Source: Candidatus Eiseniibacteriota bacterium (GTDB lineage Bacteria; Eisenbacteria; RBG-16-71-46; JABDJR01). Taken from it: a stretch of 64,000 nt of DNA. Below, in pieces: positions 14,032 to 64,000 of the stretch. Made by a program: the position numbers and the translations under genes. The stretch spans positions 672,001 through 736,000 of the forward strand of contig CAVXKA010000002.1 in assembly GCA_963762255.1 (NCBI GenBank), read 5' to 3'. The notes below the pieces were generated by a model that was not told where the DNA came from, did not search any database, and saw nothing but the letters and a program-made list of their open reading frames with translations. Each line of letters starts with the position of its first letter. The stretch's first letter is position 1.

Positions 14032-15584
<1,553 letters not shown>

Positions 15585-15588
<4 letters not shown>

Positions 15589-17018
15589 GAAGCGCACGCT
15601 CGGGGCCGGCGGCTGCGCTGGCCGGCCTCTTCGGACTGATGGCGGTGGCGGGGGCGGCACGGGCTGCCGCCCCTCTCGCCAGCACCGCAGACGTCCCTCC
15701 CGCCGGCGATCCGGTCGGACAGGCGGTCCAGGCGGTCTCCGCGGCGCGGATCGAAGCCGACATCCGCCGTCTGGCGGCGTTCGGCACCCGTCACACGCTC
15801 TCCGAGACCACGCCGGCTGAGCGCGGTATCGGCGCCGCGGCGCGTTGGGTGCAGGCGCAGTTCGACAGCATCTCCGCCGCCAACGGCGGACGTCTGCAGG
15901 TGGTGTGGGACGCGTGGGATCAAGAGCCCGAGGAACGCGTCCCCACTCGCGCGCGTCTCGCCAACGTGGTCGCGATACTCCCGGGGACGGCATCCGGCGC
16001 CGTGCCCGTGGGGGACGCCGGCACAGCCGTCCCTGCCGGTGGAGACGTCTGTTTTGTGGTGGGTGGCCACCTTGACTCCCGCGCCGCCGACATCATGGAT
16101 GCGGTCTCGGACGCACCCGGCGCCGACGACGACGGGAGCGGGATCGCGGTCGTGCTCGAATGCGCGCGGGTCATGGCCCGCTTGCAGTGGGACCATACGC
16201 TCGTCTTCATCGCGTTCACCGGCGAGGAGCAGAACCTTCTCGGCAGCACCCATTGGGCGCAGCTCGCCGCGGCGGATTCGCTACGACTCGGCGGCGCCGT
16301 CGCCGTCGACATGGCCGGTAATACGCGCGCCGCGGACGGAGCCCTGGTCGACGACTACGTGCGTGTATTCAGCGAGGGCGTCCCGGCGGTCGAGGACGAG
16401 GCGGCGGCGCGGCTGCGCGCGGCCACCGGGGGCGAGAACGATTCTCCCTCACGGCAGTGGGCACGCTACGTGCGCGAAGCCGCCGAGAAGTACGTCCCCG
16501 AGTTCGAAGCCCGGCTGGTCTTCCGCCGCGACCGATTCCTGCGGGGCGGCGACCACATTCCGTTCAACCGCGCCGGGTTCACGGCGGTGCGCCTGACCGA
16601 AGCCGTCGAGAACTACGATCACCAACATCAGAACCCGCGCACCGAGAACGGCGTCCGCTACGGCGACCTTCCCGAGTTCGTCGACTTCGCCTATGCCGCC
16701 CGCATCGCCGGCGTCGCCGTGGCCGCTCTCGGCCACGCCGCGTCGGCCCCCGAGGCGCCGCGCGGAGTCACGATCGACGTGAGCGGCCTCGCTGTCGACA
16801 CCACGCTGCGCTGGGAGCCGAGCCCCGAGGAGGATCTCGACGGCTACGAAGTTGTGTGGCGCGCCACCACCGAGCCGGTGTGGACTCACTTCCTCGACGT
16901 CGGCCCGGTGACCGAGGCCACGCTCCCCCTTTCCAAGGATGACACCCTGTTCGGCGTCAGGGTCCGTGACCGCGCCGGCCACCTGAGCCCGGCGGTCGTC
17001 CCGGTGCCGAAGCGATGA
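15585..17018 (+). CDS. M28 family metallopeptidase with C-terminal FN3-like domain
   Basis: Motifs FGTRHT, GGHLDS, GADDDGSG, GEEQ, GGDH and HQ. Signal peptide; TTG overlaps the pruA stop. Confidence 0.9.
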
Positions 17019-17695
17019 AGCTCACCGTCATCATCCCTGTGTTCAACGAGGAGCGGACGATCGAGCAGGTCGTGCGCGCGGTGGCGGCGGTCCCCATCGA
17101 CACGGACATCGTCGCTGTCGACGACGCTTCCGTCGACCGTACCCCGGAGATCCTGCGCGCGTTAGAGAGCGAGGGCCTGGTCCGCGTCTTTCGCCAGACT
17201 CGGAACCTTGGCAAGGGCGCCGCGGTACGCCGGGGCATCGACGAGGCCCGGGGGGAGATCTGCGTCATCCAGGACGCCGACCTCGAGTATCAGCCGAGCG
17301 ACTTCCCGGCACTCATCCGGCCCATCGTCGAGTACGGCGCCGACGCGGTCTACGGCAGCCGCTTTCTGGGACCGCACCGCGTCTTCCTTCACTGGCACTA
17401 CGCCGCCAACCGCTTCCTCACCGGGGCGGCCAACCTGCTCTTCGACACGATGCTTACCGACATGGAAACGGGGTACAAGGCGGTACGCACCGAGGTTCTG
17501 CGGGGAATGAACCTGCGGTCGAGCACCTTCGATATCGAGCCCGAGATCACGGCCAAGCTCTTCAAACGCAGGTGCAAGGTGTTCGAGATCCCGATTACGT
17601 ACAACGGCCGGACCTACGCCGAGGGGAAGAAGATCCGGGCCAAGGACGGCCTGCTGGCGGTGATCGCGCTCCTTCGCTTCCGTTTCGTCGACTGA
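17015..17695 (+). CDS. GT2 glycosyltransferase (polyprenol-phosphate sugar synthase/DPM1-like)
   Basis: Motifs IPVFNE, VDDAS, GKGAA, IQDADLEY, YGSRF and TDMETGYK. Confidence 0.92.
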   Translation: MKLTVIIPVFNEERTIEQVVRAVAAVPIDTDIVAVDDASVDRTPEILRALESEGLVRVFRQTRNLGKGAAVRRGIDEARGEICVIQDADLEYQPSDFPALIRPIVEYGADAVYGSRFLGPHRVFLHWHYAANRFLTGAANLLFDTMLTDMETGYKAVRTEVLRGMNLRSSTFDIEPEITAKLFKRRCKVFEIPITYNGRTYAEGKKIRAKDGLLAVIALLRFRFVD

Positions 17696-52245: not shown

Positions 52246-52342
52246 GGTTGCCCTTCTGCTCCTTGAGGCACAGACGCTTGAGGGATTCTAGCGCGCATGC
52301 GGCACGAAGAAGAACTCGTTCAAGTGCCGGCGTTGCCCGAGC

Positions 52343-52843
52343 CTACCTGCGCACGGGGGATTCCATCGAGCCCTTGCCGCGTCCGAGGCGGTTCACGGCT
52401 CGCTTCTGAAGCAGGTGGAAGGCGAATCCGAACACGCTTCCGACCACCAGGGACACTCCCAGGAAGGCGATGACGTCGGCCGCTCGGCCAGTGATGGTGA
52501 AGAAGAGGAACCGGATGTCGTCGGTGACAAATCGCATGCCGGTTGTGTACGAGATCGAGAAACGCACGACCCCCCACAGGAGCAGCCCGAAGACGGCGCC
52601 TATGCCAAGGGCACGGTTGGGCGTTGTCATGAAGCGTCCGAGACTCACTCCGAATAGCATTCCGATGATGCCCGAGGGAATCACGACCACGAGTCCCAAC
52701 ACCGTGGCCGGCCAGTCGGAGCGGCGGGTCATCGCGGCGACAAGCACGTGGAAGGCTGCCGCGGCCAACCCGAAGAGAATCCCGACCAGGCATCCCAGGG
52801 ACGCGCGTCTCTCGCTGCTAGCCGGGGTTGGGTCGGGCTCCAT
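52343..52843 (-). CDS. Small multi-pass membrane protein
   Basis: GAGGGGAG RBS before ATG 52843; about 4 hydrophobic helices. Confidence 0.7.
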   Translation of the reverse strand: MEPDPTPASSERRASLGCLVGILFGLAAAAFHVLVAAMTRRSDWPATVLGLVVVIPSGIIGMLFGVSLGRFMTTPNRALGIGAVFGLLLWGVVRFSISYTTGMRFVTDDIRFLFFTITGRAADVIAFLGVSLVVGSVFGFAFHLLQKRAVNRLGRGKGSMESPVRR

Positions 52844-52902
52844 TCGTACTCCCCTCTCTGCGCGCACGGCCGGATCGAGTGCGGGCACGCGTTCGTCTTG
52901 AG

Positions 52903-53170
52903 CTACGGCAAGAACTTCTCCGGGTGCGCGAGCTTCTCCGGCAGATAGGTCTCGATCACGTAGTTGAGCCCATGCTTGGCCAGCGCCTGCTGCTCGGCGC
53001 GCACCTCCATGCGGATCAACTGCTCCAGCGCCCGCTGCCACTCACGATGGTGCTGCACGAACGGATCGTTCTTGATCGCGTCCCGCGCGCGCTTGACGTC
53101 CACATCGGTCAACGGATGCGTCGGCAGCTCGTAGTCGATGATGTCCTGCGGCGTCACCCCAAGGAACCGC
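52903..53170 (-). repeat. Orphan copy of the 3' end of the topo VI A gene (direct repeat of 63244-63510)
   Basis: 268 bp. Hand alignment gives 19 substitutions and 1 indel against 63244-63510. Encodes RFLGVTPQDII…HPEKFLP*. Confidence 0.95.
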
Positions 53171-53196: not shown

Positions 53197-54330
53197 TCAA
53201 GTCCCGGCCGCTGCCGCCAATGCCCCCTGCCGAGCCTGCACGAGGCGGAAGAAATCCCAGGTCATGAACACGTACGGGGATTCCTCGCCGCCGCGATCCT
53301 GCGGGTGCCAGACGAGGCCGAGGTGGATGTTGCGGCGCGGATGGAGCAGCAAACCCAACCCGGTACCCATGTCCTCGCGAAACGTGGCGGTGACGGAGGC
53401 GCCCAGGTAGTTCTGGCCCGAGTCGCCGGTGTAGCGCAGGTGGCCGAGCAGCTCCAGGTTCACGACCCCCTTCCCGCGGATGTCCTGCCAAGTGAGGGTG
53501 GAGAGCTCAACGCCCAACCCCGGGTGTAGCAGAATCCACTGGGCCCGGGGCGGGTGCAGGGCGTCGAAGGAGAGGACGACGCCGTTAACCAGCGATTCCC
53601 AGGGGTACTGCGAGTAGCCGCTGGTGAGGTAGTTCTCCCAGCGGGCGTCCGCGGCGACGATCTCGTGCAAGGCTACATCCTTGACGGGCAGAAGGAAGTC
53701 GTCCAGCACCGCCGCCACGGCGTCGCCGCGCAGACGCAGATCGAGTGCGGTCTCCGGCTCCACCAGCAGTCGGATACTGTCATCATCGGTGTATTCCCAC
53801 ACCGTGAACCTGTCAGTCGAGCCAGAAAAGTAGCTCAACCCTTCGAGCGGCTTGTCCGGAAGCAACGACCTATTGTTGTACCGCAGGCTGCCAGACATGA
53901 CGCTGCGGCGCTTGAGCGTCAGCTTCTGAGCCGGGCCACCGGTGGCCGCGACCGCGGCCGCGAAGTCGGTCACCACGGAATCGAAGTGGGCAGCGAATGC
54001 GGCGAAGATCGCGGGGTCAGCCTGGCTGGGGGCTGTGCCGTCGCGGTAGCGATCGGCAAGGGCCCGCAAAATGGCCAGGTAGTCATCGCGGGCGAGTTCA
54101 TCCGCGAACTCCGCAAGGATCTGCGTGCGGTAACGGGGATCCTGGTCCACGTGCGCTGCCTGCGCCCAATCCGCCACAGGGGCCGCCCAATACTGTGGCA
54201 GCAAGTCGCTCTCCGCGACGACGGTCGCCGCGTGGGTGGCGAAAGGCACGACCACTAAGAGCGCGAGCAGGAGAGCGACCCGCACGGCGCGGATCGCTTT
54301 GACATCCAACGTCATCACGCGTCCAGCCAC
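53197..54330 (-). CDS. Secreted hypothetical protein, helical N-terminal half and beta-strand-rich C-terminal half
   Basis: GGAGGGAG RBS and GTG start; signal peptide ALLLALLVVVPFATHA; 16 bp downstream of the hydrolase gene. Confidence 0.75.
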   Translation of the reverse strand: MAGRVMTLDVKAIRAVRVALLLALLVVVPFATHAATVVAESDLLPQYWAAPVADWAQAAHVDQDPRYRTQILAEFADELARDDYLAILRALADRYRDGTAPSQADPAIFAAFAAHFDSVVTDFAAAVAATGGPAQKLTLKRRSVMSGSLRYNNRSLLPDKPLEGLSYFSGSTDRFTVWEYTDDDSIRLLVEPETALDLRLRGDAVAAVLDDFLLPVKDVALHEIVAADARWENYLTSGYSQYPWESLVNGVVLSFDALHPPRAQWILLHPGLGVELSTLTWQDIRGKGVVNLELLGHLRYTGDSGQNYLGASVTATFREDMGTGLGLLLHPRRNIHLGLVWHPQDRGGEESPYVFMTWDFFRLVQARQGALAAAAGT

Positions 54331-54346
54331 AGTCTCCCTCCTCGAC

Positions 54347-55420
54347 TCAGGGCCGGTTCTCGATTACGCGCTTGATCTCCTCAATGATCTTGCGCGCCTG
54401 CGCCAGGACCTTGAATAGCTGCTCGAGTGACGAGTCTTCCGCAAGCTGGCCAAGAAGCGCACGCAGTTCAGCCAGTTGATCCTGCAACGCCGGGATCGGC
54501 GCGAAGTCGCCGCCGAACTGCGGGTAGCTTGCGCTGTCCACAGCCGCGCGCATCTGGGCGCGGGTGATCGCGCTGCCACCCATGACGCGGTTGAGCAGCG
54601 GGATGTGGACCCTCGGATGGTCGAGATAGTGCGTGAGCCCGTGGATGTTCCACTGGCGGTAGTGAAAGAGATCCTCGTGGAGAAAGTAACGCCCTTGAAA
54701 GTGCACGGGAGCGAAGCGGCGCACGACGAGGCAGGGATCCAGTTCGTGTCGGAAATCGAAGAACGCGGAGCACAGCGAACTCTTGCTCTCATTGGGCCCG
54801 GGGCGCACGAACGAGTCGTAGGCGGGGAAATCCGTCTGCAGCAGCCGACTGACGTTGGCGAGCATGAAGATGCTGTCAAGTCGAGCTTGCGGCGGCCGGA
54901 ACGGTCCGGCCCCGCCCAGCGGCTGGGTGGCCATCACCTGCAGAGCGTCGTGCGCGACCGCGGTTCCGAGGCTATGCGCCAGGACGGTGCAGCGGCCGAG
55001 GTCCCAGCCGGCATGATCCTTGACGCCCTGGACAATCTGCCGCACGACCGAGGCGCGGATGCGCTCCTGGTAGAGATTGAAAAAGCGGTAGATCACCACG
55101 TCGGCCAGGTGCGACCAGAAGAACGGCGGGTGTTCGGCGGCGATGCCATCGAGCCAGCCGAGAGTGCCGCCTAGCTTGATCTGCTGCTGCGACGCGAACT
55201 GCGACACCGCGCCCGCACCATCCTGCCACTGCTTGAGGACGTTGCACAGGATGTCGTCGTAGTTGACCGGCACGACCGTCACGTCGGCCGGCCAGCCCGA
55301 GTCCTTGAACGTGGGGTAGCGCCGACTGATCTCGTCGAGCTTCTGCTTGACCTCGTCGAGCCAGGTATCGGCTTCATGCACTCCCATACCGTGGACGACG
55401 AAGAGCACATGTCGGGCCAT
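54347..55420 (-). CDS. Alpha/beta-hydrolase (lipase-like)
   Basis: Oxyanion motif VVHGMG, nucleophile elbow LAHSLGT, C-terminal amphipathic helix. GGGAGG RBS. Confidence 0.8.
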   Translation of the reverse strand: MARHVLFVVHGMGVHEADTWLDEVKQKLDEISRRYPTFKDSGWPADVTVVPVNYDDILCNVLKQWQDGAGAVSQFASQQQIKLGGTLGWLDGIAAEHPPFFWSHLADVVIYRFFNLYQERIRASVVRQIVQGVKDHAGWDLGRCTVLAHSLGTAVAHDALQVMATQPLGGAGPFRPPQARLDSIFMLANVSRLLQTDFPAYDSFVRPGPNESKSSLCSAFFDFRHELDPCLVVRRFAPVHFQGRYFLHEDLFHYRQWNIHGLTHYLDHPRVHIPLLNRVMGGSAITRAQMRAAVDSASYPQFGGDFAPIPALQDQLAELRALLGQLAEDSSLEQLFKVLAQARKIIEEIKRVIENRP

Positions 55421-55485
55421 AACACCTCCCTCGCACGCTGTTGACCGTCGAGAGGTCGATTCACGGTGCGGGAGCTATTAAGCGA

Positions 55486-55515
55486 AGCATAGGGAAATCC
55501 CCAAAACGCTGTCAA
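55486..55515 (-). promoter_or_regulatory. Sigma70-like promoter for the hydrolase and secreted-protein pair
   Basis: TTGACA-N18-TATGCT on the minus strand. The spacer contains the inverted repeat GGGA-AA-TCCC. Confidence 0.6.
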
Positions 55516-55705
55516 TCACAAGACCCACGTGCCAAGTTGTCGACGGCGGCGGGTCGGTAACCGGTCGAACCGGTGTCATTTCTCCGGATCCGTCAAGGGT
55601 GGGGTAGAATCCCCTACGCGTTCCTGCGACTCGCGGACCCTGCTGCGGCGCGCCTGGTGCGTTCACTTGCGGGGACCGACCAACCCCCGACACGGAGGAC
55701 GCGTC

Positions 55706-57844
55706 ATGCGTATCGATCCATCCTTCGTCATCCTCGAATCCGGCCAGAACGTGGAGGATGCGCTCGGCGCCGTACCTCCGGGTGGATCCGTCCACTACGT
55801 TGTCATCCGACGCGAGTTGGGCGACAGCGTCTTCTGGTACACGATCCGCGTCGACGCCTTCCTGCGGCGGATCGCGAACCACCCCGTAAGGCAGCCGATC
55901 GAGGTCGCACTCGAGCTCCATGAACGCGACGCTGTCCCGGTCCATCCCGAGGGCGCGACGGAGGGCGACAGCTACCGTCCTGGCGCGGTAGTGATAAGCC
56001 CTCGTGGTCGCGTGATGGGTGTTCTGGAGATGGTGTACCTCGCGCCGCCACCCACTGCCGAGGCGCCGCGGAGAAACCGCAGGTTCCGCGACCTCTTGAG
56101 GTTTGGTCGGCCCAAGGAGAGGCGGGGCGAAGCAGGGGCGCCTCCCGATGAATCCGTGCACGCTCCCGGAGAGTACATGGATGCCGGCCCGAAGGCGATG
56201 CCGCCGGCGGCCGACGAGCGTCCAGCGACCACTGCAGCCCCTCCCCCCACCACACCGACCGCTCCCGAGAAGCGGGCGTTCCAGGCATGGCCCGACCTCG
56301 GCGCGCCGGTCGTGGTAGAGGAACACCAAATCTTCGATCTCGTCATTGGCTTTGCGCGAAGCGCGCGTGCGGACGTGTCCGGCGGTCCGGTGGTGCTCGA
56401 CTTGGCCCCGCCCGAGTTCGACCTTCACATCCAGGTGGCCGCGGCGGGATTCGACGCCCCGGAGGGCTGGACCCGCATGCTGCACGTGGTGCGCGACAAT
56501 CCATGGTCGGCGCACGTGACGGTGGAGCTCGTGGCCACCGACGGCATCGCAAGGAGCGAGGTGCGCTCGATCACGGTCCTGTTTCACTTCGAGGGGCAGC
56601 TATGTGGTCAGGCGCGTCGCAAGGTGGTCGTGGTGCCGCAGGGCACGGCCATCGACTCCGCGACGCCGATGGCGGCGGACGTTGCGGCGAAGCCCAGTAC
56701 CACGGGTGTGCCGGTGAGGGTGAAGCCGGGGCTCAGGGCCCCCGACCTTACCGCCACCATCCAGCTCACCACCGGGCGCGCCTCGCGCGAGGTCTTCCTC
56801 TGGACGTTTGAATCCCCGCACTCCGTCGCACTGCCTGAGACGCCGGCGACCACCGAATTCGATACCGGCGTCGGCGCTTACGTGGACAGCGTGCTGCAGC
56901 AACTGGTAGCTCTCTCAGGCGAGCCGACCGCGGATAATCAGATGCGCGGGATAGGTCGGCAAATCGCGCGTCGCATGCCGGCGGCCTTCTGGTCGGTGTT
57001 GAAACAGGTGAGCCAGATCACCGCCGGCGCGGGCCGCGCCCCAGACGTGCTGCTCGTGACCGAAGAGACCCGCCTGCCCTGGGAGCTGGCGTGGATGCCC
57101 GAACCGCTCGATCCAGCACGCGCGGCGCACCTCGGGGCGCAGGTCAATCTCGGCCGCTGGATCCTCGGAGACTCCGGCCCCGCACTTCCTCCCGAGGATC
57201 GGCTGCCTTACCGCAACATCGTCGTGGTAGTGGGAAACTACCCGAAGGGCGCCGGGGTGGCGGCGCTGCCCGACGCGGTGGCCGAAGCCGACTGGCTGAA
57301 GCAGAAGGAGCAGTCACGCGCCACAGTAATCGAGATGGAGGGCACCGAACTTGACTCATTCCTCGAGGGCGAGGTGCCGGTCGCGGGCTGCGAGTTGATC
57401 CACTTTGCCTGTCACGGCCGCTCGAAGACGGGCGCGCCCGCGGAGACCCACCTCGTGATGCAGGGCGGGCAGACGTTTACGCCGCAGGTACTCGAGGGCT
57501 CGGAGATCGGCGCCAAGTGGGCTCCGCTTCTGTTCCTGAACGCGTGCGAGGTGGGCCGCGCGGGCGTGGCGCTCGGCGAGACCGCGGGCTTTGCGGGCGC
57601 CGCGCTTTACCAAGGATGCCGCGCGTTTGTTGGCCCGCTGTGGCAGGTGCAGAGCGACGTCGCGCGCGAGATAGCCGAAGCGTTCTACACGGGCGCGCTT
57701 GCCGGCGAGCCGATCGCGGCGGTGTTGCGCGACATCCGCGCGAAGTACATCTACAGCGGTCCCGGCAGTCCGCCGTCTCCCGACACGTATCTCGCCTATG
57801 TCTACTACGGCCATCCTGCGCTCCGACTGGAGTGCCAGCCCTGA
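55706..57844 (+). CDS. CHAT (caspase-like) protease with CBS-like N-terminus, Pro-rich linker and Ig-like (TCAD7-like) middle domain
   Basis: Motifs LPWEL, IHFACHG, LFLNACEVG, FVGPLW and AYVYYG. GGAGG RBS. Confidence 0.88.
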   Translation: MRIDPSFVILESGQNVEDALGAVPPGGSVHYVVIRRELGDSVFWYTIRVDAFLRRIANHPVRQPIEVALELHERDAVPVHPEGATEGDSYRPGAVVISPRGRVMGVLEMVYLAPPPTAEAPRRNRRFRDLLRFGRPKERRGEAGAPPDESVHAPGEYMDAGPKAMPPAADERPATTAAPPPTTPTAPEKRAFQAWPDLGAPVVVEEHQIFDLVIGFARSARADVSGGPVVLDLAPPEFDLHIQVAAAGFDAPEGWTRMLHVVRDNPWSAHVTVELVATDGIARSEVRSITVLFHFEGQLCGQARRKVVVVPQGTAIDSATPMAADVAAKPSTTGVPVRVKPGLRAPDLTATIQLTTGRASREVFLWTFESPHSVALPETPATTEFDTGVGAYVDSVLQQLVALSGEPTADNQMRGIGRQIARRMPAAFWSVLKQVSQITAGAGRAPDVLLVTEETRLPWELAWMPEPLDPARAAHLGAQVNLGRWILGDSGPALPPEDRLPYRNIVVVVGNYPKGAGVAALPDAVAEADWLKQKEQSRATVIEMEGTELDSFLEGEVPVAGCELIHFACHGRSKTGAPAETHLVMQGGQTFTPQVLEGSEIGAKWAPLLFLNACEVGRAGVALGETAGFAGAALYQGCRAFVGPLWQVQSDVAREIAEAFYTGALAGEPIAAVLRDIRAKYIYSGPGSPPSPDTYLAYVYYGHPALRLECQP

Positions 57845-57860
57845 ACGAGGAGGAACTTCC

Positions 57861-59375
57861 ATGAGTGAATTCGAGCTTCTCTCCGGCGCATCCCCGATCG
57901 AGCTGGGCCCAGGCTGGACGCTGCGCGCTCCGGGCTTCTCCGGGCGCGGCGCATTCGAGCTGGCGGCACGCGGCGCGCGCCGCGCACCGGGGAGCCCGGA
58001 CCTCGGGTTGCTCGACGATGTGGTTGCCCGGCTGGCGATGACCGAGCGCGCCGTCGCCGTGCTCGATCTCGAGCCGGAGCCTGCGACGGATCCCTGGCGA
58101 CGCGGGATCGGCCAGGAGCCACCCGCCATTGAGTTCGAGACGCCCGAGCCTCCAGAGGGGTTCGAGCAGGTGATTCTGGCGGTGGACGAGGGCTCGATTG
58201 TCTCGTGGCACATTGGCGAGACACACGTCGCAACCGATGACCGCCGCGGTGCGACCGCCATGCGTCACTACCGCGTGCCGGCACGTAGGGTCTCGCCCAC
58301 CCCACCCGGCGCGGACCGGCGCGGGCTGTTCTCGGTGATCGCTCGGAAGGTGCTCAAGGTGCTGGTGTTCCCCATCACGGATTTCGTGGTGGGGGAAATC
58401 GGTCGCGGCGTGGCGCGCCTGTGGGAGAGCGGCCACGCCCCCTATGGGGTGCGCACCTTCGAGCCTGGCAACTTCAAGGCTGCGAACGTGGGCGCGTTCG
58501 GCGACCCTGACTGGCGGAGGATCGCCGGGGGCCCTGCGCTGCTCTTCGTCCACGGCACATTCAGTACCGCGCATGGCTGCTTCAGCCGCATGAACCCGCA
58601 GGCCCTTGCCGAGCTAGGCACCCGCTATGGCGGACGGACGTTCGCGTTCAACCACTGGACGCTGTCGCACGACCCACGTGAGAACGTGAAATGGCTGATC
58701 GGGCAGATTCCGCAGGGGCCTGCGCTTGATGTGGACATCGTCTGCCACAGCCGTGGCGGGCTGGTCGCCCGCACACTCGCGCATGCACTCGACGAGCTGG
58801 GGGGAGCGGGCCGAGTGCGGGTGGGACGCATCGTGTTCGTCGCCACCCCCAACGACGGAACGCGGCTAGCACAGGCCGACCACATGGTGAACATGCTTGA
58901 CCGCTATACGAACGTGGTGCAGTTCCTTCCCGACGGCCCGATCGAGATCGTGCTGGAAGGCGTGGTGACGGCGGTGAAGACGCTGGCCCACGCGGGTCTC
59001 AGCCACCTGCCCGGGCTCGCGGCGCAGGATCCCGGTAGCCGGTTCCTCGATTGGCTACGTGAGAAAGACACGGCCGGCACCGAGTACTACGCGCTAGCCG
59101 CTGACTGGGAGCCGAACGTCGGTCCGCTGTGGGACCTTGTGAAGCAGGAGATCGCGGACCGGATCATGGATGGCGTGTTCCAGAACGAGAAGAACGACCT
59201 GGTTGTGCCGACGCTCGGCGTCGGCCAAGCGCTGCGCGGGAAAGGGTTCCCCGTGGAGAATGCGCGGCAATTCACGTTTCCGCCGAACGCGGGCGTCACG
59301 CACACCAGCTTCTTCGGCGATCCATCGACCGCCGACCGCCTGCTCGAGTGGCTCACGCCGCGCGGCGGATCTTGA
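57861..59375 (+). CDS. Alpha/beta-hydrolase (PGAP1/lipase-like) with extra N-terminal domain
   Basis: Motifs LFVHGTFS, CHSRGGL, ATPNDGT, NDLVVP and H(TSFF). GAGGAGG RBS; 16 bp after the CHAT gene. Confidence 0.88.
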   Translation: MSEFELLSGASPIELGPGWTLRAPGFSGRGAFELAARGARRAPGSPDLGLLDDVVARLAMTERAVAVLDLEPEPATDPWRRGIGQEPPAIEFETPEPPEGFEQVILAVDEGSIVSWHIGETHVATDDRRGATAMRHYRVPARRVSPTPPGADRRGLFSVIARKVLKVLVFPITDFVVGEIGRGVARLWESGHAPYGVRTFEPGNFKAANVGAFGDPDWRRIAGGPALLFVHGTFSTAHGCFSRMNPQALAELGTRYGGRTFAFNHWTLSHDPRENVKWLIGQIPQGPALDVDIVCHSRGGLVARTLAHALDELGGAGRVRVGRIVFVATPNDGTRLAQADHMVNMLDRYTNVVQFLPDGPIEIVLEGVVTAVKTLAHAGLSHLPGLAAQDPGSRFLDWLREKDTAGTEYYALAADWEPNVGPLWDLVKQEIADRIMDGVFQNEKNDLVVPTLGVGQALRGKGFPVENARQFTFPPNAGVTHTSFFGDPSTADRLLEWLTPRGGS

Positions 59376-59500
59376 ACGGGGCGGAGGAGCGCCCGAGGGT
59401 CTGTGGCCGCCGTGACACTCGCCTCACCGACCGCGGCGAGGACGCGATAGAATCCCACACGCGCTCAGCCTCCTTCCAGCCGCAAACCGGAGTTGCCAAC

Positions 59501-62500
59501 ATGCCCGAGCAAACGACTCTTCACATCCGCGAACGTGCCGCCGGTCCGGGGAGGCACGCTATCGGGCTCACCTTACAGCGTCCCGGGCAGGCGGATATCG
59601 GGGCGGAGGCGAACATCGAATTCGCGCTCACCCCGCAGGAGCACGAGGAGCTGCGCTGGTATCTGGAGGACTACCTGCTGCGGCCGGAGGCGATCCAAGA
59701 GGTTCAAATCGAGCAGATCGAAGCATGGATGCAACGATGGGGCAAAGAATTGTACACGAAGGTCCTGGCTGCCAACATGAACACACAGGCCATCTGGTTT
59801 GCGGTGCGCGAACAGTTGGCCAACCTGCGAGTTGAAATCTCTGCGGGCATCGCGGAAGCCGCTTCCATTCCTTGGGAGCTGATGCGGGATCCCCAGTCCG
59901 ACTCACCCATCGCCCTTCGTGTTCGATCGTTCGTGCGCGTCCAGTCGAACCCAAACCTCAGTTTCGTCCCCGTGCCATCGGCCGACGAAGGACGCATCCG
60001 CCTGCTGTACGTCGTATGCCGGCCAGCCGGGATTGAAGACGTTGAGCTGCGGGTTGTGGCCAACCGGCTCTTGCAGGATGCAGGCAAGGATCTCACTCGC
60101 TTCGACATCACCGCCCTCCGGCCACCCACGTTCGAGCAACTGCAAAGAGTGCTGAGCGACGCCAATACCGCCGGGCGCCCGTACCACATCGTCCACTTCG
60201 ATGGGCACGGCGTCTACGAGGACCTGAGCAAGACCCCCCTGGCTGACTGGTTGAGAGCCATCAACGCCCTGACGCTGGGAGGCAGTAGGGCGGGCAAGCA
60301 CGGCTACCTACTGTTCGAACATCCCAGCAGCGAGCACAAGATGCGCCCCGTGACTGGGGACGAACTTGGCAAGTTGCTCCACGACACGGGCGTGCCCGTA
60401 CTGGTGCTGAACGCCTGCCAATCCGCCATGCACCAAGCCGGGACTGATCCGGACGGGGCGGGCCTGGCCAGCAACGCCCACGATGAAATCCGGGCCATCG
60501 GTTCGCTGACCCAAGCCGTCATCGACCAGGGTATCCCTGCCGTCCTCGGCATGCGATACAGCGTCTTTGTCGTCACCGCGGCCCAGTACGTTGGCCAGCT
60601 CTACGCCGCATTGGCCAAAGGCCGCCCCTTCGGCGAGGCGGCCAGCGAGGCTCGCAAGCACCTGGCTCGCAACCCGGACCGATGGATAGGTCTGCAGCCT
60701 CGCCCGCTGCAGGATTGGTTTGTCCCGGTAGTCTACGAAGCAGCCCCGATCCGGCTGCTGCCGCAAGAGACGGCTTTCGAAGGCGGCGAGCAGCCGGAAC
60801 TCGACCCAGTCCAGAATGACCCTTCACTGCTGCGCTACGTGCCCGACACCGGCTTCGTCGGCCGCGACGAAACGCTGCTGATGCTCGACCGCGCCTTCGA
60901 CGCCCACCCTGTTGTGCTACTGCACGCCTATGCCGGGCAGGGCAAGACCGCCACCGCAGTTGAATTCGCCCGCTGGTATGCCCGAACAGGCGGCCTCGGC
61001 CCGCGGCCTCTTGTTCTGTTCACTTCCTTCGAGCATCCCATCGACCTCGACGATGTCTTGAACCAGATCGGGCAGCGCACCGTCCAGGACTGGAGCGCGA
61101 TCAACGAGAGTCACGAGAAGCGCTCACGTGTAGTCCAACTGCTCCGGCAAGTTCCCTTGCTGTGGATCTGGGACAACGTGGAACCCGTCGCTGGCTTCCC
61201 GGCCGGGACCGAATCCGCCCGAGCGCCAGAGGAACAGGCCGAGCTGGCCGCCTTCTTGAAGCAGGTCAAGCTGGACCCGGCTACAAGAGCCAAGATCCTG
61301 CTGACCAGTCGCCGGGACGAGCAAGCGTGGCTGGGCGGCATCCCGCACCGGGTTCCCATGCCCCACATGACCGCTGCGGACGCCGCCCACTTGGCGGTGC
61401 AAATCGGTGCCGAACGGGAGCTGGACCGAAGCCAAGTCGCGCAGTGGCAACCTCTGCTGGACTACTGTGCCGGCAATCCGCTGACGCTGCGGATCATCGC
61501 TGGACAGGCTGTGCAGTTGGGCCTGCGAGACCGGGATCAGGTTGCAGCCTTCATCCAGGCGGTGCGAGACGGCGAGCAGCGCATCGAAGACGTCAACACA
61601 GCCGAGGGCCGGGACCGTTCGCTGGGCGCCTCGCTCGACTACGGCTTCCGCAACACCTTTGAGGCTAATGAGCTGTCCATCATCGCCCTGCTGCACCTAT
61701 TCCAGGGCACCGTGGATGTGGATACCCTCGCGTCGATGGGCGAAGCGAGCGACCATGCCCTGCCCGAACTCGAGGAGAGGACCAAGGAACACCTGACGAG
61801 CGTGCTCGACCGGGCACGGGACACCGGCCTGCTGACCTATCTGGGCGGAACGTCCTATGGAATCCACCCGGCTCTACCATGGTTCCTCCGTCAGTTGTTC
61901 GCCCAGCATTACGACGGACAGCAAGGCCGCTCGACCGCCACCCTCCGGGCTTGGGTCGAGGCCGTTGGCGCAATGGGCGAGCAGTACCAACGGCAGTTCA
62001 GCCGAGGCAACCAAGACGTCATCCAAAACCTCGCCTTGGAAGAAGCCAACCTGCTGCACGCCCGTCGCACCGCTCGCCGCCACGGTTGGTGGCAATCCGT
62101 GATTGCCGCCATGCAGGGCCTGCGAACCCTCTGCAAGTACCAAGGCCGGACGTCCGAATGGTCCCGGTTGGTGGCGGAAATCACCCCCGACTACTGCACC
62201 CTCGACGACGCCCCCATGCCCGGCCGTGAAGGTGAATTCACCGTGGTCATGAGCTACCGAGTTGACCTGGCCCAGGGACACTACCGAGACCTCGCCCAAG
62301 CTGCCTCCCTGCAGGCGAAAGTGACGGCCTGGGACCGCCAGCAAGCCGCCCCCGTCCTCGCCCTCCCCAACGACACCCCCCTGGACCCCTACCAGCGCCA
62401 CCTTGTCCACACCTTAGGCGCCAGCGTGTTCGCCCTTGCCCAAATCCTCATGGAGCAGGGCAACCCGGACTGCGTAGCAGCGTACGAGGAATCCATTCAG

Positions 62501-63157
62501 CATATGCAGCGAATCCAGGACACATCCACTGAAGCCATTGCTCACTACAACCTCGGACACGCCTTCATGGAAGTCCCCGCCATCCGCGACCTAGACGCCG
62601 CCGAGACCGCCTACCAGCGAAGCATGGCCTTGCGAGACACGATGGATGCCTTGGGTCGTTCCGCGAGCATCAAGCAGGTCGGTATGGTCCACCATGCAAG
62701 ATTCTCCGAATCCCGTCGGCGACAAGAGCCGGTGGCGACCATGCGGAAGCACGCCCAGGCAGCGGAGCAGCACTACCACCGGGCTCTCGCACTCTGCCCC
62801 CCCACCGCTCTCCCCCACCTAGGCCCCTTCCACCACCAGTTGGGCCTTCTCTACAGGAACGTCGGCCTGACCGAGCAAGCCCGAGAGCACTACGAGAAGG
62901 CCGTCCAGTACTTCGAGCGCACCGGCAACCGCCACAGTGCAGGCAAGACTCGCTTCAACATCGCCATCATGTACCTCAGCGCTGCGGAACGAGAGACCAC
63001 CGCGTCCCGTCAGATAGACCTCCTGCGCCGCGCGCAGGCCTACGCCCAGGCCGCCCTGCGCGACTTCAAGCACTACCAAGGCCGCGCCAGCGCAGAGGAA
63101 ACCGGAGCCCAGCGTCTCATCGACCATATCGCCGAAGCCCTCGATCAGCACACTTAG
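59501..63157 (+). CDS. CHAT-STAND(NB-ARC-like)-TPR protein, NLR-like protease (1218 aa)
   Basis: CHAT motifs IPWEL, VHFDGHG and VLNAC. NTPase motifs FVGR, Walker A YAGQGKT, Walker B IWDNVE, LTSR and GNPL. C-terminal TPRs. Confidence 0.9.
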   Translation: MPEQTTLHIRERAAGPGRHAIGLTLQRPGQADIGAEANIEFALTPQEHEELRWYLEDYLLRPEAIQEVQIEQIEAWMQRWGKELYTKVLAANMNTQAIWFAVREQLANLRVEISAGIAEAASIPWELMRDPQSDSPIALRVRSFVRVQSNPNLSFVPVPSADEGRIRLLYVVCRPAGIEDVELRVVANRLLQDAGKDLTRFDITALRPPTFEQLQRVLSDANTAGRPYHIVHFDGHGVYEDLSKTPLADWLRAINALTLGGSRAGKHGYLLFEHPSSEHKMRPVTGDELGKLLHDTGVPVLVLNACQSAMHQAGTDPDGAGLASNAHDEIRAIGSLTQAVIDQGIPAVLGMRYSVFVVTAAQYVGQLYAALAKGRPFGEAASEARKHLARNPDRWIGLQPRPLQDWFVPVVYEAAPIRLLPQETAFEGGEQPELDPVQNDPSLLRYVPDTGFVGRDETLLMLDRAFDAHPVVLLHAYAGQGKTATAVEFARWYARTGGLGPRPLVLFTSFEHPIDLDDVLNQIGQRTVQDWSAINESHEKRSRVVQLLRQVPLLWIWDNVEPVAGFPAGTESARAPEEQAELAAFLKQVKLDPATRAKILLTSRRDEQAWLGGIPHRVPMPHMTAADAAHLAVQIGAERELDRSQVAQWQPLLDYCAGNPLTLRIIAGQAVQLGLRDRDQVAAFIQAVRDGEQRIEDVNTAEGRDRSLGASLDYGFRNTFEANELSIIALLHLFQGTVDVDTLASMGEASDHALPELEERTKEHLTSVLDRARDTGLLTYLGGTSYGIHPALPWFLRQLFAQHYDGQQGRSTATLRAWVEAVGAMGEQYQRQFSRGNQDVIQNLALEEANLLHARRTARRHGWWQSVIAAMQGLRTLCKYQGRTSEWSRLVAEITPDYCTLDDAPMPGREGEFTVVMSYRVDLAQGHYRDLAQAASLQAKVTAWDRQQAAPVLALPNDTPLDPYQRHLVHTLGASVFALAQILMEQGNPDCVAAYEESIQHMQRIQDTSTEAIAHYNLGHAFMEVPAIRDLDAAETAYQRSMALRDTMDALGRSASIKQVGMVHHARFSESRRRQEPVATMRKHAQAAEQHYHRALALCPPTALPHLGPFHHQLGLLYRNVGLTEQAREHYEKAVQYFERTGNRHSAGKTRFNIAIMYLSAAERETTASRQIDLLRRAQAYAQAALRDFKHYQGRASAEETGAQRLIDHIAEALDQHT

Positions 63158-63243
63158 CAGCCGGCTGTGGCGCTTGAGGATGACGTTCAAGACCTCCGCC
63201 GGGGGCCTTGCGGGGGCGCGAGCCGGTTTGCGCGTGGTGCGAC

Positions 63244-64000
63244 CTACGGCAAGAACTTCTCCGGGTGCGCCAGCTTCTCCGGCAGGTAGGTCTCGATCAC
63301 GTAGTTGAGCCCGTGCTTGGCCAGCGCCTGCTGCTCGGCGCGCACCCCCATGCGGATCAGCTGCTCGAGCGCCCGCTGCCACTCGCGTGGTGCTGGACGA
63401 ACGGGTCGTTCTTGAGCGCGTCCTGCGCGCGCTTGACGTCCACGTCCTTCAGCGGGTGCGTCGGCAGCTCGTAGTCGATGATGTCCTGCGGCGTGACGCC
63501 GAGGAACCGCGCCTGCGGCACGCAGAAGAACTCGTTCAGGTGCGCGGCGTTGCCCGAGCCGACCTTGAGCGTGCGGTAGATGTTCATGAAGCCGTAGGGG
63601 TCGCCGTCGACGAAGACGTAGACCGGGATCTTCTTCTCGTCGGCCAGCCGGCGGATGAAGCGCCGGCACGCGCGCGTCGGCACGCCGCCCATCGACACCA
63701 GGATGCAGTTGGCCTCGTGCCAGTAGTTGTGCTTGACCAGCCGCTGGAACATGCCGGCGGTCTCGATGACGAGGATGAACTTCGCCTTGGTCTCGAACTC
63801 GAGGTGCTCGACCGAGATCGGGATCGAATAGGCGCCGCTGCCGAACTTCGTGCAGTCGATGCGCAGCGTCTTGCCGGTGTCGCGGTCGCGGTCGATGACC
63901 ACGAGCTGGCCGGCCACCTCGCCGCCCTTCTCCTCGGGGATGAAGCCGAGCTGCTCGCGGTTCACCGCGAAGAGCGCCTCCACGTCGTCCATCACCGTGT
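63244..64000 (-). CDS. top6A: DNA topoisomerase VI subunit A (Spo11-like), 5' end beyond the window; apparent 1-nt deletion near 63387
   Basis: TOPRIM motifs VIETAGMFQRL, GGVPTRACRRF, FVDGDPYG and LGVTPQDI…EQQAL. The paralogous tail at 52903-53170 has the missing base. Confidence 0.88.
   Translation of the reverse strand, partial: HGDGRRGGALRGEPRAARLHPRGEGRRGGRPARGHRPRPRHRQDAAHRLHEVRQRRLFDPDLGRAPRVRDQGEVHPRHRDRRHVPAAGQAQLLARGQLHPGVDGRRADARVPALHPPAGRREEDPGLRLRRRRPLRLHEHLPHAQGRLGQRRAPERVLLRAAGAVPRRHAAGHHRLRAADAPAEGRGRQARAGRAQERPVRPAPREWQRALEQLIRMGVRAEQQALAKHGLNYVIETYLPEKLAHPEKFLP

Follow-up and report, generated by a model that had tools for sequence, protein, structure and literature searches.

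A conserved TCAD7-CHAT protease and lipase-like hydrolase gene pair at the core of a probable three-module island in a Candidatus Eiseniibacteriota genome

We analyzed a 64,000-nucleotide stretch of a Candidatus Eiseniibacteriota genome (contig CAVXKA010000002.1; the whole stretch is referred to here as the window), in which five open reading frames (ORFs), called g1 to g5 from left to right, fill positions 53197-63157. Our results support the view that the third and fourth of these, a protease gene with TCAD7 and CHAT domains (g3) and a gene for a lipase-like hydrolase of the DUF7379 family (g4), form a true functional pair that has been conserved. We favor a reading, with a probability of roughly 0.65 for the whole of it including the mechanism, in which the five genes make up an island of 10.3 kb that was acquired horizontally, sits at the 3' end of top6A and consists of three modules, each inherited independently in other genomes. 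The g3-g4 pair would be its core and would act as a cleavage-activated suicide or defense module. The two genes of the pair are as follows, with the most plausible starts used for these and all other gene coordinates.

55706-57844, plus strand: g3, 712 amino acids counted from an ATG; TCAD7, middle region and CHAT
57861-59375, plus strand: g4, 504 amino acids; beta-rich N-terminal domain and DUF7379 hydrolase

A Pfam search assigned amino acids 4-106 of g3 to TCAD7 (PF19973; expect value (E) 5.5e-12, 46.3 bits against a cut-off of 24) and the last part of the protein to CHAT (E 1.2e-20), with a conserved middle region of ~240 amino acids between the two. The CHAT domain carries HFACHG at amino acids 566-571 and LNAC at 611-614, with His570 and Cys614 as its dyad; H566, H570 and C614 were invariant in 24 of 24 relatives, and at least 90% of a set of 48 retained them. 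Among g3 homologues encoded upstream of the hydrolase, CHAT was found in 24 of 24 and TCAD7 in 21 of 24. The Pfam title of TCAD7 is "Ternary complex associated domain 7," a name that we take to stem from the work of Kaur et al. on ternary systems.

The partner protein, g4, matched DUF7379 with E 1.5e-51; in a text search of the literature this name turned up in no paper. At E 0.001, at least 1293 of 8000 scored candidates, each of about 505 amino acids, belong to this family, and relatives are encoded at 560 loci when one genome is taken for each of 185,579 species. All of 26 hydrolase homologues contained DUF7379, and 12 of them also had an N-terminal DUF7362 domain. The motif CHSRGG lies at amino acids 295-300 of g4, and the triad Ser297/Asp446/His481 was kept in 118 of 118 full-length homologues, the set on which all residue counts for g4 are based. 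The AlphaFold model, with a mean predicted local distance difference test (pLDDT) score of only 72, shows a beta-rich N-terminal domain joined to an alpha/beta-hydrolase core with a helical cap. The structures closest to this model in a Foldseek search were bacterial lipases, of which 5h6g was the best (E 5.5e-8; template modeling score 0.59 on the target), and a profile search returned the "putative lipase" 7x2p (E 1.1e-5).

We compared the best 80 of the 560 loci, each with 10-kb flanks, and the window in our own six-frame analysis (referred to as the g4-centered loci; individual loci carry L numbers). A CHAT ORF ended directly before the hydrolase gene in 51 of the 64 loci, window included, that had at least 2.2 kb of room upstream. 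On the megaplasmid of Ruegeria pomeroyi DSS-3, protease and hydrolase are a single fusion of 966 amino acids (DUF7379 at 210-382, CHAT at 662-943), and this gene fusion is evidence for joint action of the two. These results bear out the coupling of a CHAT protease to an alpha/beta-hydrolase that had been noticed in a preliminary description of this DNA. Prediction of a complex between residues 240-712 of g3 and full-length g4, made from our own alignments, gave a score of 0.00, which weighs neither for nor against binding.

Some of these loci have features of their own. In the Ruegeria fusion locus (L180, NC_006569.1 129335-135232), the fusion gene is followed by genes for a 986-amino-acid protein with SIR2_2 and AAA_21/AAA_15 domains and for a 297-amino-acid protein without a family, and an IS5 transposase gene adjoins; the locus appears to be a distinct form of the module that has a partner of its own. 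A four-gene order on one strand, encoding a 420-amino-acid CHAT protein, a 541-amino-acid protein without a Pfam family, a g3-like protein and a g4-like protein, was seen in four proteobacterial loci, L029, L039, L044 and L050 (Dyella, Burkholderiaceae, Variovorax and Luteibacter). Near the g3-g4 pair of L031, a gene at 15121-17091 on the minus strand encodes a 656-amino-acid protein that joins CHAT to SIR2_2.

Conserved arginines in g4 suggest how the pair may work. Of the 118 homologues, 116 had R129 and 114 had G130, and R154 was kept in all 118, the next residue being Ser in 63 and Gly in 54 (G155 in g4); a third column, at about residue 81-82, held Arg in 108. In the model, R129 and R154 sit in loops of the N-terminal domain with pLDDT below 50. 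Conserved Arg-Gly/Ser sites in disordered loops are the signature expected of a protease-gated zymogen, and to judge from these alignments the most likely mechanism is that g4 is a zymogen that g3 cuts after the conserved arginines. We propose that g3, a cytoplasmic protease, is co-transcribed with a latent g4 and that, on a signal, it would cut g4 at R129|G130 and R154|G155 and possibly near residue 81. Cutting in the loops of the N-terminal domain would relieve autoinhibition, and the freed hydrolase would then kill or arrest the cell, as abortive infection or programmed death. Gene structure, domains, catalytic residues, linkage and distribution are observed here, and cleavage, activation, toxicity and a role in defense are inferred.

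A precedent for such cleavage comes from Lysobacter capsici AZ78, in which LcCaspase cuts the adjacent LcHydrolase after Arg73 and Arg117 (Evans et al. 2025, bioRxiv 10.1101/2025.11.14.688446). Across 161 homologues, an Arg with Gly after it is conserved, and N- and C-terminal LcHydrolase fragments killed E. coli when co-expressed; the substrate was left unidentified (Evans et al. 2025). By analogy with this pair, and given the conserved Arg-Gly and Ser sites of g4, the proposal of the preliminary description that a protease releases a lipase appears sound for the central pair. Its further step, an attack of the hydrolases on the membrane, found no support.

The pair lies in a block whose other features are listed here.

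53197-54330, minus strand: g1, 377 amino acids; predicted exported or membrane-anchored protein, partner of g2
54347-55420, minus strand: g2, 357 amino acids; putative lipase-like serine hydrolase without a signal peptide
55421-55705: divergent intergenic region between g2 and g3, 285 bp
59501-63157, plus strand: g5, 1218 amino acids; CHAT, STAND-type nucleoside triphosphatase (NTPase) and TPR
52900-53170, minus strand: left boundary repeat, an orphan top6A 3' end; direct repeat of 63241-63510
63241-63510, minus strand: right boundary repeat, the in-gene 3' end of top6A (top6A by Pfam; locus L002, 357-1445)

The five ORFs have a G+C content at third codon positions (GC3) of 0.76-0.83, which is of the coding type; the genome as a whole has 65% GC, and the flanking genes have a GC3 of 0.82-0.99. 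The genes within each pair are close together, with 16 bases from the g2 stop to the g1 start and 16 bases between g3 and g4, and 125 bases separate the g4 stop from the g5 start. A direct repeat of ~270 nucleotides, in copies that are 90-95% identical, brackets exactly the five genes. The orphan copy was 93.5% and the in-gene copy 89.2% identical to the top6A tail of a genome of the same genus (185 comparable nucleotides); the closer match of the orphan fits an element that carries its own replacement for the gene end, the difference being small. Searches with g5 and with DUF7379 both found nothing in seven other genomes of the same family. Across the phylum, g5 relatives were present in two and strong DUF7379 matches in seven of 206 genomes, with one genome (G000) counted in both. 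These data agree with the preliminary description, which had called the stretch an island of five genes: GC3 and Pfam bear out the genes and the domains given for them, and the motifs quoted there (HFDGHG/LNAC, HFACHG/LNAC, AHSLG and CHSRGG) are all present and are conserved in relatives.

No integrase was seen on the island, and a tRNA scan of 40000-64000 found no tRNA, hence no tRNA attachment site. A search for an empty insertion site found none: five genomes of the same family have top6A, and in them the sequence that follows the gene has no match to the island or to the window's left flank; the contig from the same genus spans only 2.7 kb. A promoter and terminator scan of the island returned no more sites than did shuffled sequences; the spacer between g2 and g3 held a single sigma-70-like match (55515-55486, minus strand), a frequency no higher than in shuffles. 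PADLOC models gave no match at E 0.01 or better for any of the five proteins, and NCBIfam added nothing for them, with only sub-threshold TPR matches for g5.

A second fragment of top6A, of 57 nucleotides, lies ~550 nucleotides to the left of the orphan tail (52292-52348 against 63508-63565; 92-95% identical) and does not follow the order of the intact gene; a previous insertion at this site may have left it behind. For the flanks, Pfam was run on the coding-type ORFs between 43214 and the end of the window and on those of the next 10 kb. The left flank includes polysaccharide genes, and the right flank has genes for both topoisomerase VI subunits, a cyclase, CorA and ABC transporters; the families found over the two flanks were glycosyltransferases, PGA_cap, deacetylase, methyltransferase, MsrB, topoisomerase VI A and B, cyclase, CorA and ABC transporters. 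Both topoisomerase VI subunits are encoded (63244 onward; L002, 357-3808), with a cyclase-family gene between them. Translated with table 11, the window has the look of bacterial DNA.

The last gene of the island, g5, has the architecture of a sensor joined to a protease, as the preliminary description had said. Pfam found CHAT (E 1.4e-19) and TPR_12 (E 1.6e-9), and AAA_16 weakly (E 0.002; 19.1 bits against a cut-off of 32.6). The CHAT domain has HFDGHG at amino acids 232-237 and LNAC at 303-306, with a His236/Cys306 dyad, and the NTPase has GQGKT at 479-483 (Walker A), WIWDNVE at 555-561 (Walker B), TSRR at 602-605 and GNPL at 658-661; we take the TSR and GxPL elements to be motifs of the NB-ARC type. 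H232, C306, G479, G481 and K482 were invariant in 18 of 18 family members, and the NTPase motifs were largely so. The protein may be an NLR-like sensor-protease in which the TPR part would bind a trigger, assembly would follow in an NTPase-dependent manner, and CHAT would become active. A comparison with the sequences of the PDB gave nothing useful.

The g5 family is large and uniform. At least 2942 proteins matched at E 0.001 among 8000 candidates scored, and the best 120 listed (119 relatives and the query) were 61-75% identical over the full 1218 amino acids; close relatives with names came from four phyla (Anaerolineae, Thermodesulfobacteriota, Acidobacteriota and Bacteroidota). We examined seven other loci with a g5 relative (L165 and L181-L186), which come from genome G059, a Streptomyces plasmid, three Gemmatimonadota genomes and two IMG/VR contigs, and g1-g4 were not near the relative in any of the seven. 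Occurrence without g1-g4 in seven of seven loci is the behavior of a self-contained, mobile, single-gene system, and the uniformity of the family, its range of phyla and its presence on viral contigs suggest that it spread recently and widely by horizontal transfer as such a system. In G059 the relative sits between rpoD and rsmE/mutS2; on the IMG/VR contigs (L185, L186) one lies beside endolysin-like and Bro-N genes and the other beside a large serine recombinase gene.

The pair at the left end of the island, g2-g1, belongs to families for which Pfam has no entry. The g2 protein shows the order of an alpha/beta-hydrolase, with HG at amino acids 10-11, AHSLG at 148-152 (Ser150), Asp228 and His260; H149, S150, G152, D228 and H260 were invariant in 32 of 32 relatives. 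None of its 259 homologues had a Pfam family, and its profile similarity to class 3 lipases was weak (E 0.011). The g1 family counts 416 representatives in a library clustered at 50%. The g1 model (pLDDT 89.4) consists of a helical domain, a 45-residue helix and a six-stranded sheet, and a comparison with the PDB gave no significant match (best E 0.11). Atlas look-ups returned nothing but unnamed clusters; a lead to PagL for g1 had a score of 0.77, below the level of use, and the fold search did not support it. The preliminary description had called g1 secreted, and here a hydrophobic N-terminal helix, which the model places at residues 10-27 and which is followed by THA-AT, is the basis for predicting export or membrane anchoring.

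In 57 of 80 g2-centered metagenome loci, g1 was directly downstream of g2, and most of the other loci ended too soon; both genes were present in 41 of 44 loci, made up of the 42 loci longer than 7 kb, L014 and the window. No g3, g4 or g5, nor any CHAT or DUF7379 gene, was found in the 80 g2-centered loci, and g1-g2 appeared in one (L014) of the 80 g4-centered loci. Among 401 Gemmatimonadota genomes, five had g2, and DUF7379 exceeded its cut-off in none of the five. These results indicate that g2 and g1, a putative lipase-like hydrolase and its predicted exported partner, form a pair of their own that is probably unrelated to the proteases.

Several groups of observations weigh against the three-module reading as a whole. 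The first concerns the surroundings of the pair. In 13 of the 64 g4-centered loci with room there was no upstream CHAT gene, and some loci without one (L035, L049, L078) carried a CHAT gene downstream instead; overall, a CHAT gene started directly 3' of the hydrolase in nine of 67 loci with room. Where g3 was also present, the downstream CHAT protein had an NTPase and/or TPR part in six of seven loci, window included. Such genes beside g3-g4 favor a unit of three genes and make it less likely that g5 is fully autonomous. In this explanation the three genes would be one cascade: g5 would sense a phage protein, its CHAT domain would cleave g3 or g4, and the hydrolase would be the shared death effector. 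The arrangement in the window, with g5 on the same strand as g4 and starting 125 bases after it, is as expected of such a unit, and in six other loci (L017, L025, L026, L032, L036 and L040) a CHAT gene directly follows g3-g4, five of them carrying TPR or AAA_16. These six loci are all from Gemmatimonadota, so they are kin and not independent cases. A tblastn search with the CHAT part of g5 hit four of the six, with only 23-26% identity, and its STAND and TPR parts had no match in the 80 g4-centered loci. A second CHAT gene of any kind lay within ~10 kb in 28 of 81 g4-centered loci. Published systems also associate an alpha/beta-hydrolase with sensor-fused proteases, including a STAND NTPase (Evans et al. 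2025, 10.1101/2025.11.14.688446), and bring two caspase domains together with a hydrolase in vWA systems (Kaur et al. 2020, PMC7159879). The g5 family itself does not follow g3-g4: relatives lacked g3 or g4 in all seven other loci and are rare where g3-g4 is common, being present in three of the 401 Gemmatimonadota genomes. These results indicate that a second protease is a recurrent but optional companion of g3-g4. We judge the three-gene cascade to be possible, with the odds against it; g5 may feed the g3-g4 module, the odds being roughly two to one the other way, and most likely works on its own.

The second group concerns g2-g1. In L014 (Gemmatimonadales), g2-g1 lies 2.7 kb downstream of g3-g4, with identities of 41%, 35% and 34%, and two meetings of rare modules, in the window and in L014, are more than chance would give. 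Elsewhere the conserved neighbors of g2-g1 are genes for Ser/Thr kinases, an ABC-2/M1 peptidase protein, MFS and AcrB transporters and an unnamed membrane protein, and no defense genes. The preliminary description had joined all five genes in one sensor-to-protease cascade that releases g4 and g2 as lipase effectors, with g1 as a secreted component. The boundary repeats shared by the five genes, the 285-bp divergent region that g2-g1 and g3-g4 have in common and the neighborhood of the two pairs in so distant a genome as that of L014 all agree with such a cascade. We give it very little credence all the same, in view of the 80 g2-centered loci empty of g3, g4 and g5, the single co-occurrence among the g4-centered loci, the five g2-bearing Gemmatimonadota genomes in which DUF7379 stays below its cut-off and the kinase, peptidase and transporter neighbors of g2-g1; in addition, no protease was found with g2 at the other loci examined. 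What the homologues show is a split into three modules: g3 and g4 are linked, g1-g2 does not co-occur with the rest apart from the one locus named, and g5 occurs without g1-g4. The window and L014 do not make g2-g1 and g3-g4 one system, and the two pairs may have met because both favor variable regions. A two-tier cascade, in which g5 would activate g3 and g3 would unlock both g4 in the cytoplasm and g2 in the envelope, the latter by way of exported g1, is also highly improbable; if it were true, the side-by-side arrangement in L014 would reflect function and not chance.

The third group concerns the proposed mechanism and role. The LcHydrolase is a protein of ~33 kDa, to judge from its fragment sizes, and is cut inside its fold, whereas g4 has 504 amino acids and its Arg sites are in a separate N-terminal domain. 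The likeness between g3-g4 and the Lc pair is one of gene arrangement and domain content. None of the five proteins matched a PADLOC model, so a defense role of the island modules is suggested by analogy only. The lack of a PADLOC match also counts for another explanation, in which g3-g4 would be regulated housekeeping, such as lipid or envelope remodeling or developmental proteolysis in aggregating bacteria, and the hydrolase would be a co-factor or regulator of the protease and not its substrate. Ser/Thr kinase genes upstream of the pair in 11 of the 80 g4-centered loci would suit such a role, as would the link between caspase/hydrolase systems and a multicellular habit (Kaur et al. 2020, PMC7159879) and the fact that even for the tested relative the hydrolase substrate is unidentified (Evans et al. 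2025). A housekeeping role fits poorly with a patchy distribution (strong DUF7379 matches in seven of 206 genomes of the phylum and in none of seven other genomes of the family), with the position of g3-g4 in an inserted island, with the SIR2/AAA and IS genes that adjoin the Ruegeria fusion and with the toxicity of the fragments of the Lc relative (Evans et al. 2025). We consider this explanation unlikely and retain the reading of three modules with g3-g4 as a probable cleavage-activated core.

If this reading is correct, a large family of TCAD7-CHAT proteases with DUF7362/DUF7379 hydrolases (at least 1293 proteins, 560 loci) is placed under a newly demonstrated mechanism, with Cys614 of g3 and Ser297, R129|G130 and R154|G155 of g4 as the candidate key residues. 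The analysis also shows how first-pass readings of a "defense island" can mistake separate modules for a single system. Two of the other families deserve attention in their own right: g5, which is very uniform, has no PADLOC model and also travels as cargo in viral contigs, and g2-g1, which has no Pfam family and in which g1 is predicted with confidence to have a fold without a solved structural relative.

Among known systems, g5 resembles the Avs and NLR STAND sensors, for example the caspase-like protease fused to Avs12 in Ktedonobacter racemifer (Evans et al. 2025), in that g5 has a caspase-like domain at the N-terminus, a STAND-type NTPase with conserved Walker A/B, TSR and GxPL motifs, and TPR at the C-terminus. 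It differs from Avs in that it had no PADLOC match, Avs models included, in that no adjoining small substrate gene of the EACC1 or Pepco type was recognized and in the unusual uniformity of its family. Assignment of g5 to an Avs/AVAST or bNACHT family already described was considered and set aside, as PADLOC gave no match and NCBIfam only sub-threshold TPR. Likewise, no partner family of the gasdermin and type III-E Craspase systems named in the preliminary description (a gasdermin substrate, or Cas7-11 or Csx30) was found with Pfam, NCBIfam and PADLOC among the five proteins and the scanned flanks, CRISPR arrays not having been searched specifically.

The g3-g4 pair shares its logic with two further systems. 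In the Trypsin-MBL module (bioRxiv 10.1101/2025.09.03.673762), a linked protease strips autoinhibitory loops from a hydrolase effector, and in the SAVED-CHAT to PCaspase cascade of type III-B CRISPR one protease is reported to activate another. Both differ from g3-g4 in protease class or effector fold, and the sensors that they are linked to (Hachiman, Avs or CRISPR) were not seen here. The vWA-MoxR ternary/GAP1 systems (VMAP, iSTAND) share with g3-g4 the domain pair, a ternary-complex-associated domain on the protease (TCAD7 in g3) and the prediction of joint operation; unlike them, g3-g4 is a free-standing pair beside a CHAT-STAND-TPR gene. A vWA-MoxR ternary system was also rejected as an identity for the island, with no MoxR, vWA, VMAP or GAP1 gene among the ORFs scanned over ~10 kb on each side.

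The LcCaspase/LcHydrolase pair is like g3-g4 in having adjacent genes for a Cys protease and a lipase-like hydrolase, conserved Arg-Gly motifs at two sites (placed differently in the two hydrolases), a cytoplasmic location and, in some cases, a connection to STAND sensors, and g3 differs from LcCaspase by its TCAD7 domain and its 240-amino-acid middle region. The preliminary description had presented the island as a candidate undescribed system. That label does not hold for the central pair: all domains of g3 and g4 have Pfam entries, and the pairing had been stated by Kaur, Burroughs, Iyer and Aravind (2020, eLife, PMC7159879), who found the caspase-superfamily domain of their systems always with a neighboring alpha/beta-hydrolase gene and considered joint operation of the two probable. 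The g3-g4 module is of a kind already described, its pairing predicted in 2020 and shown in another representative in 2025.

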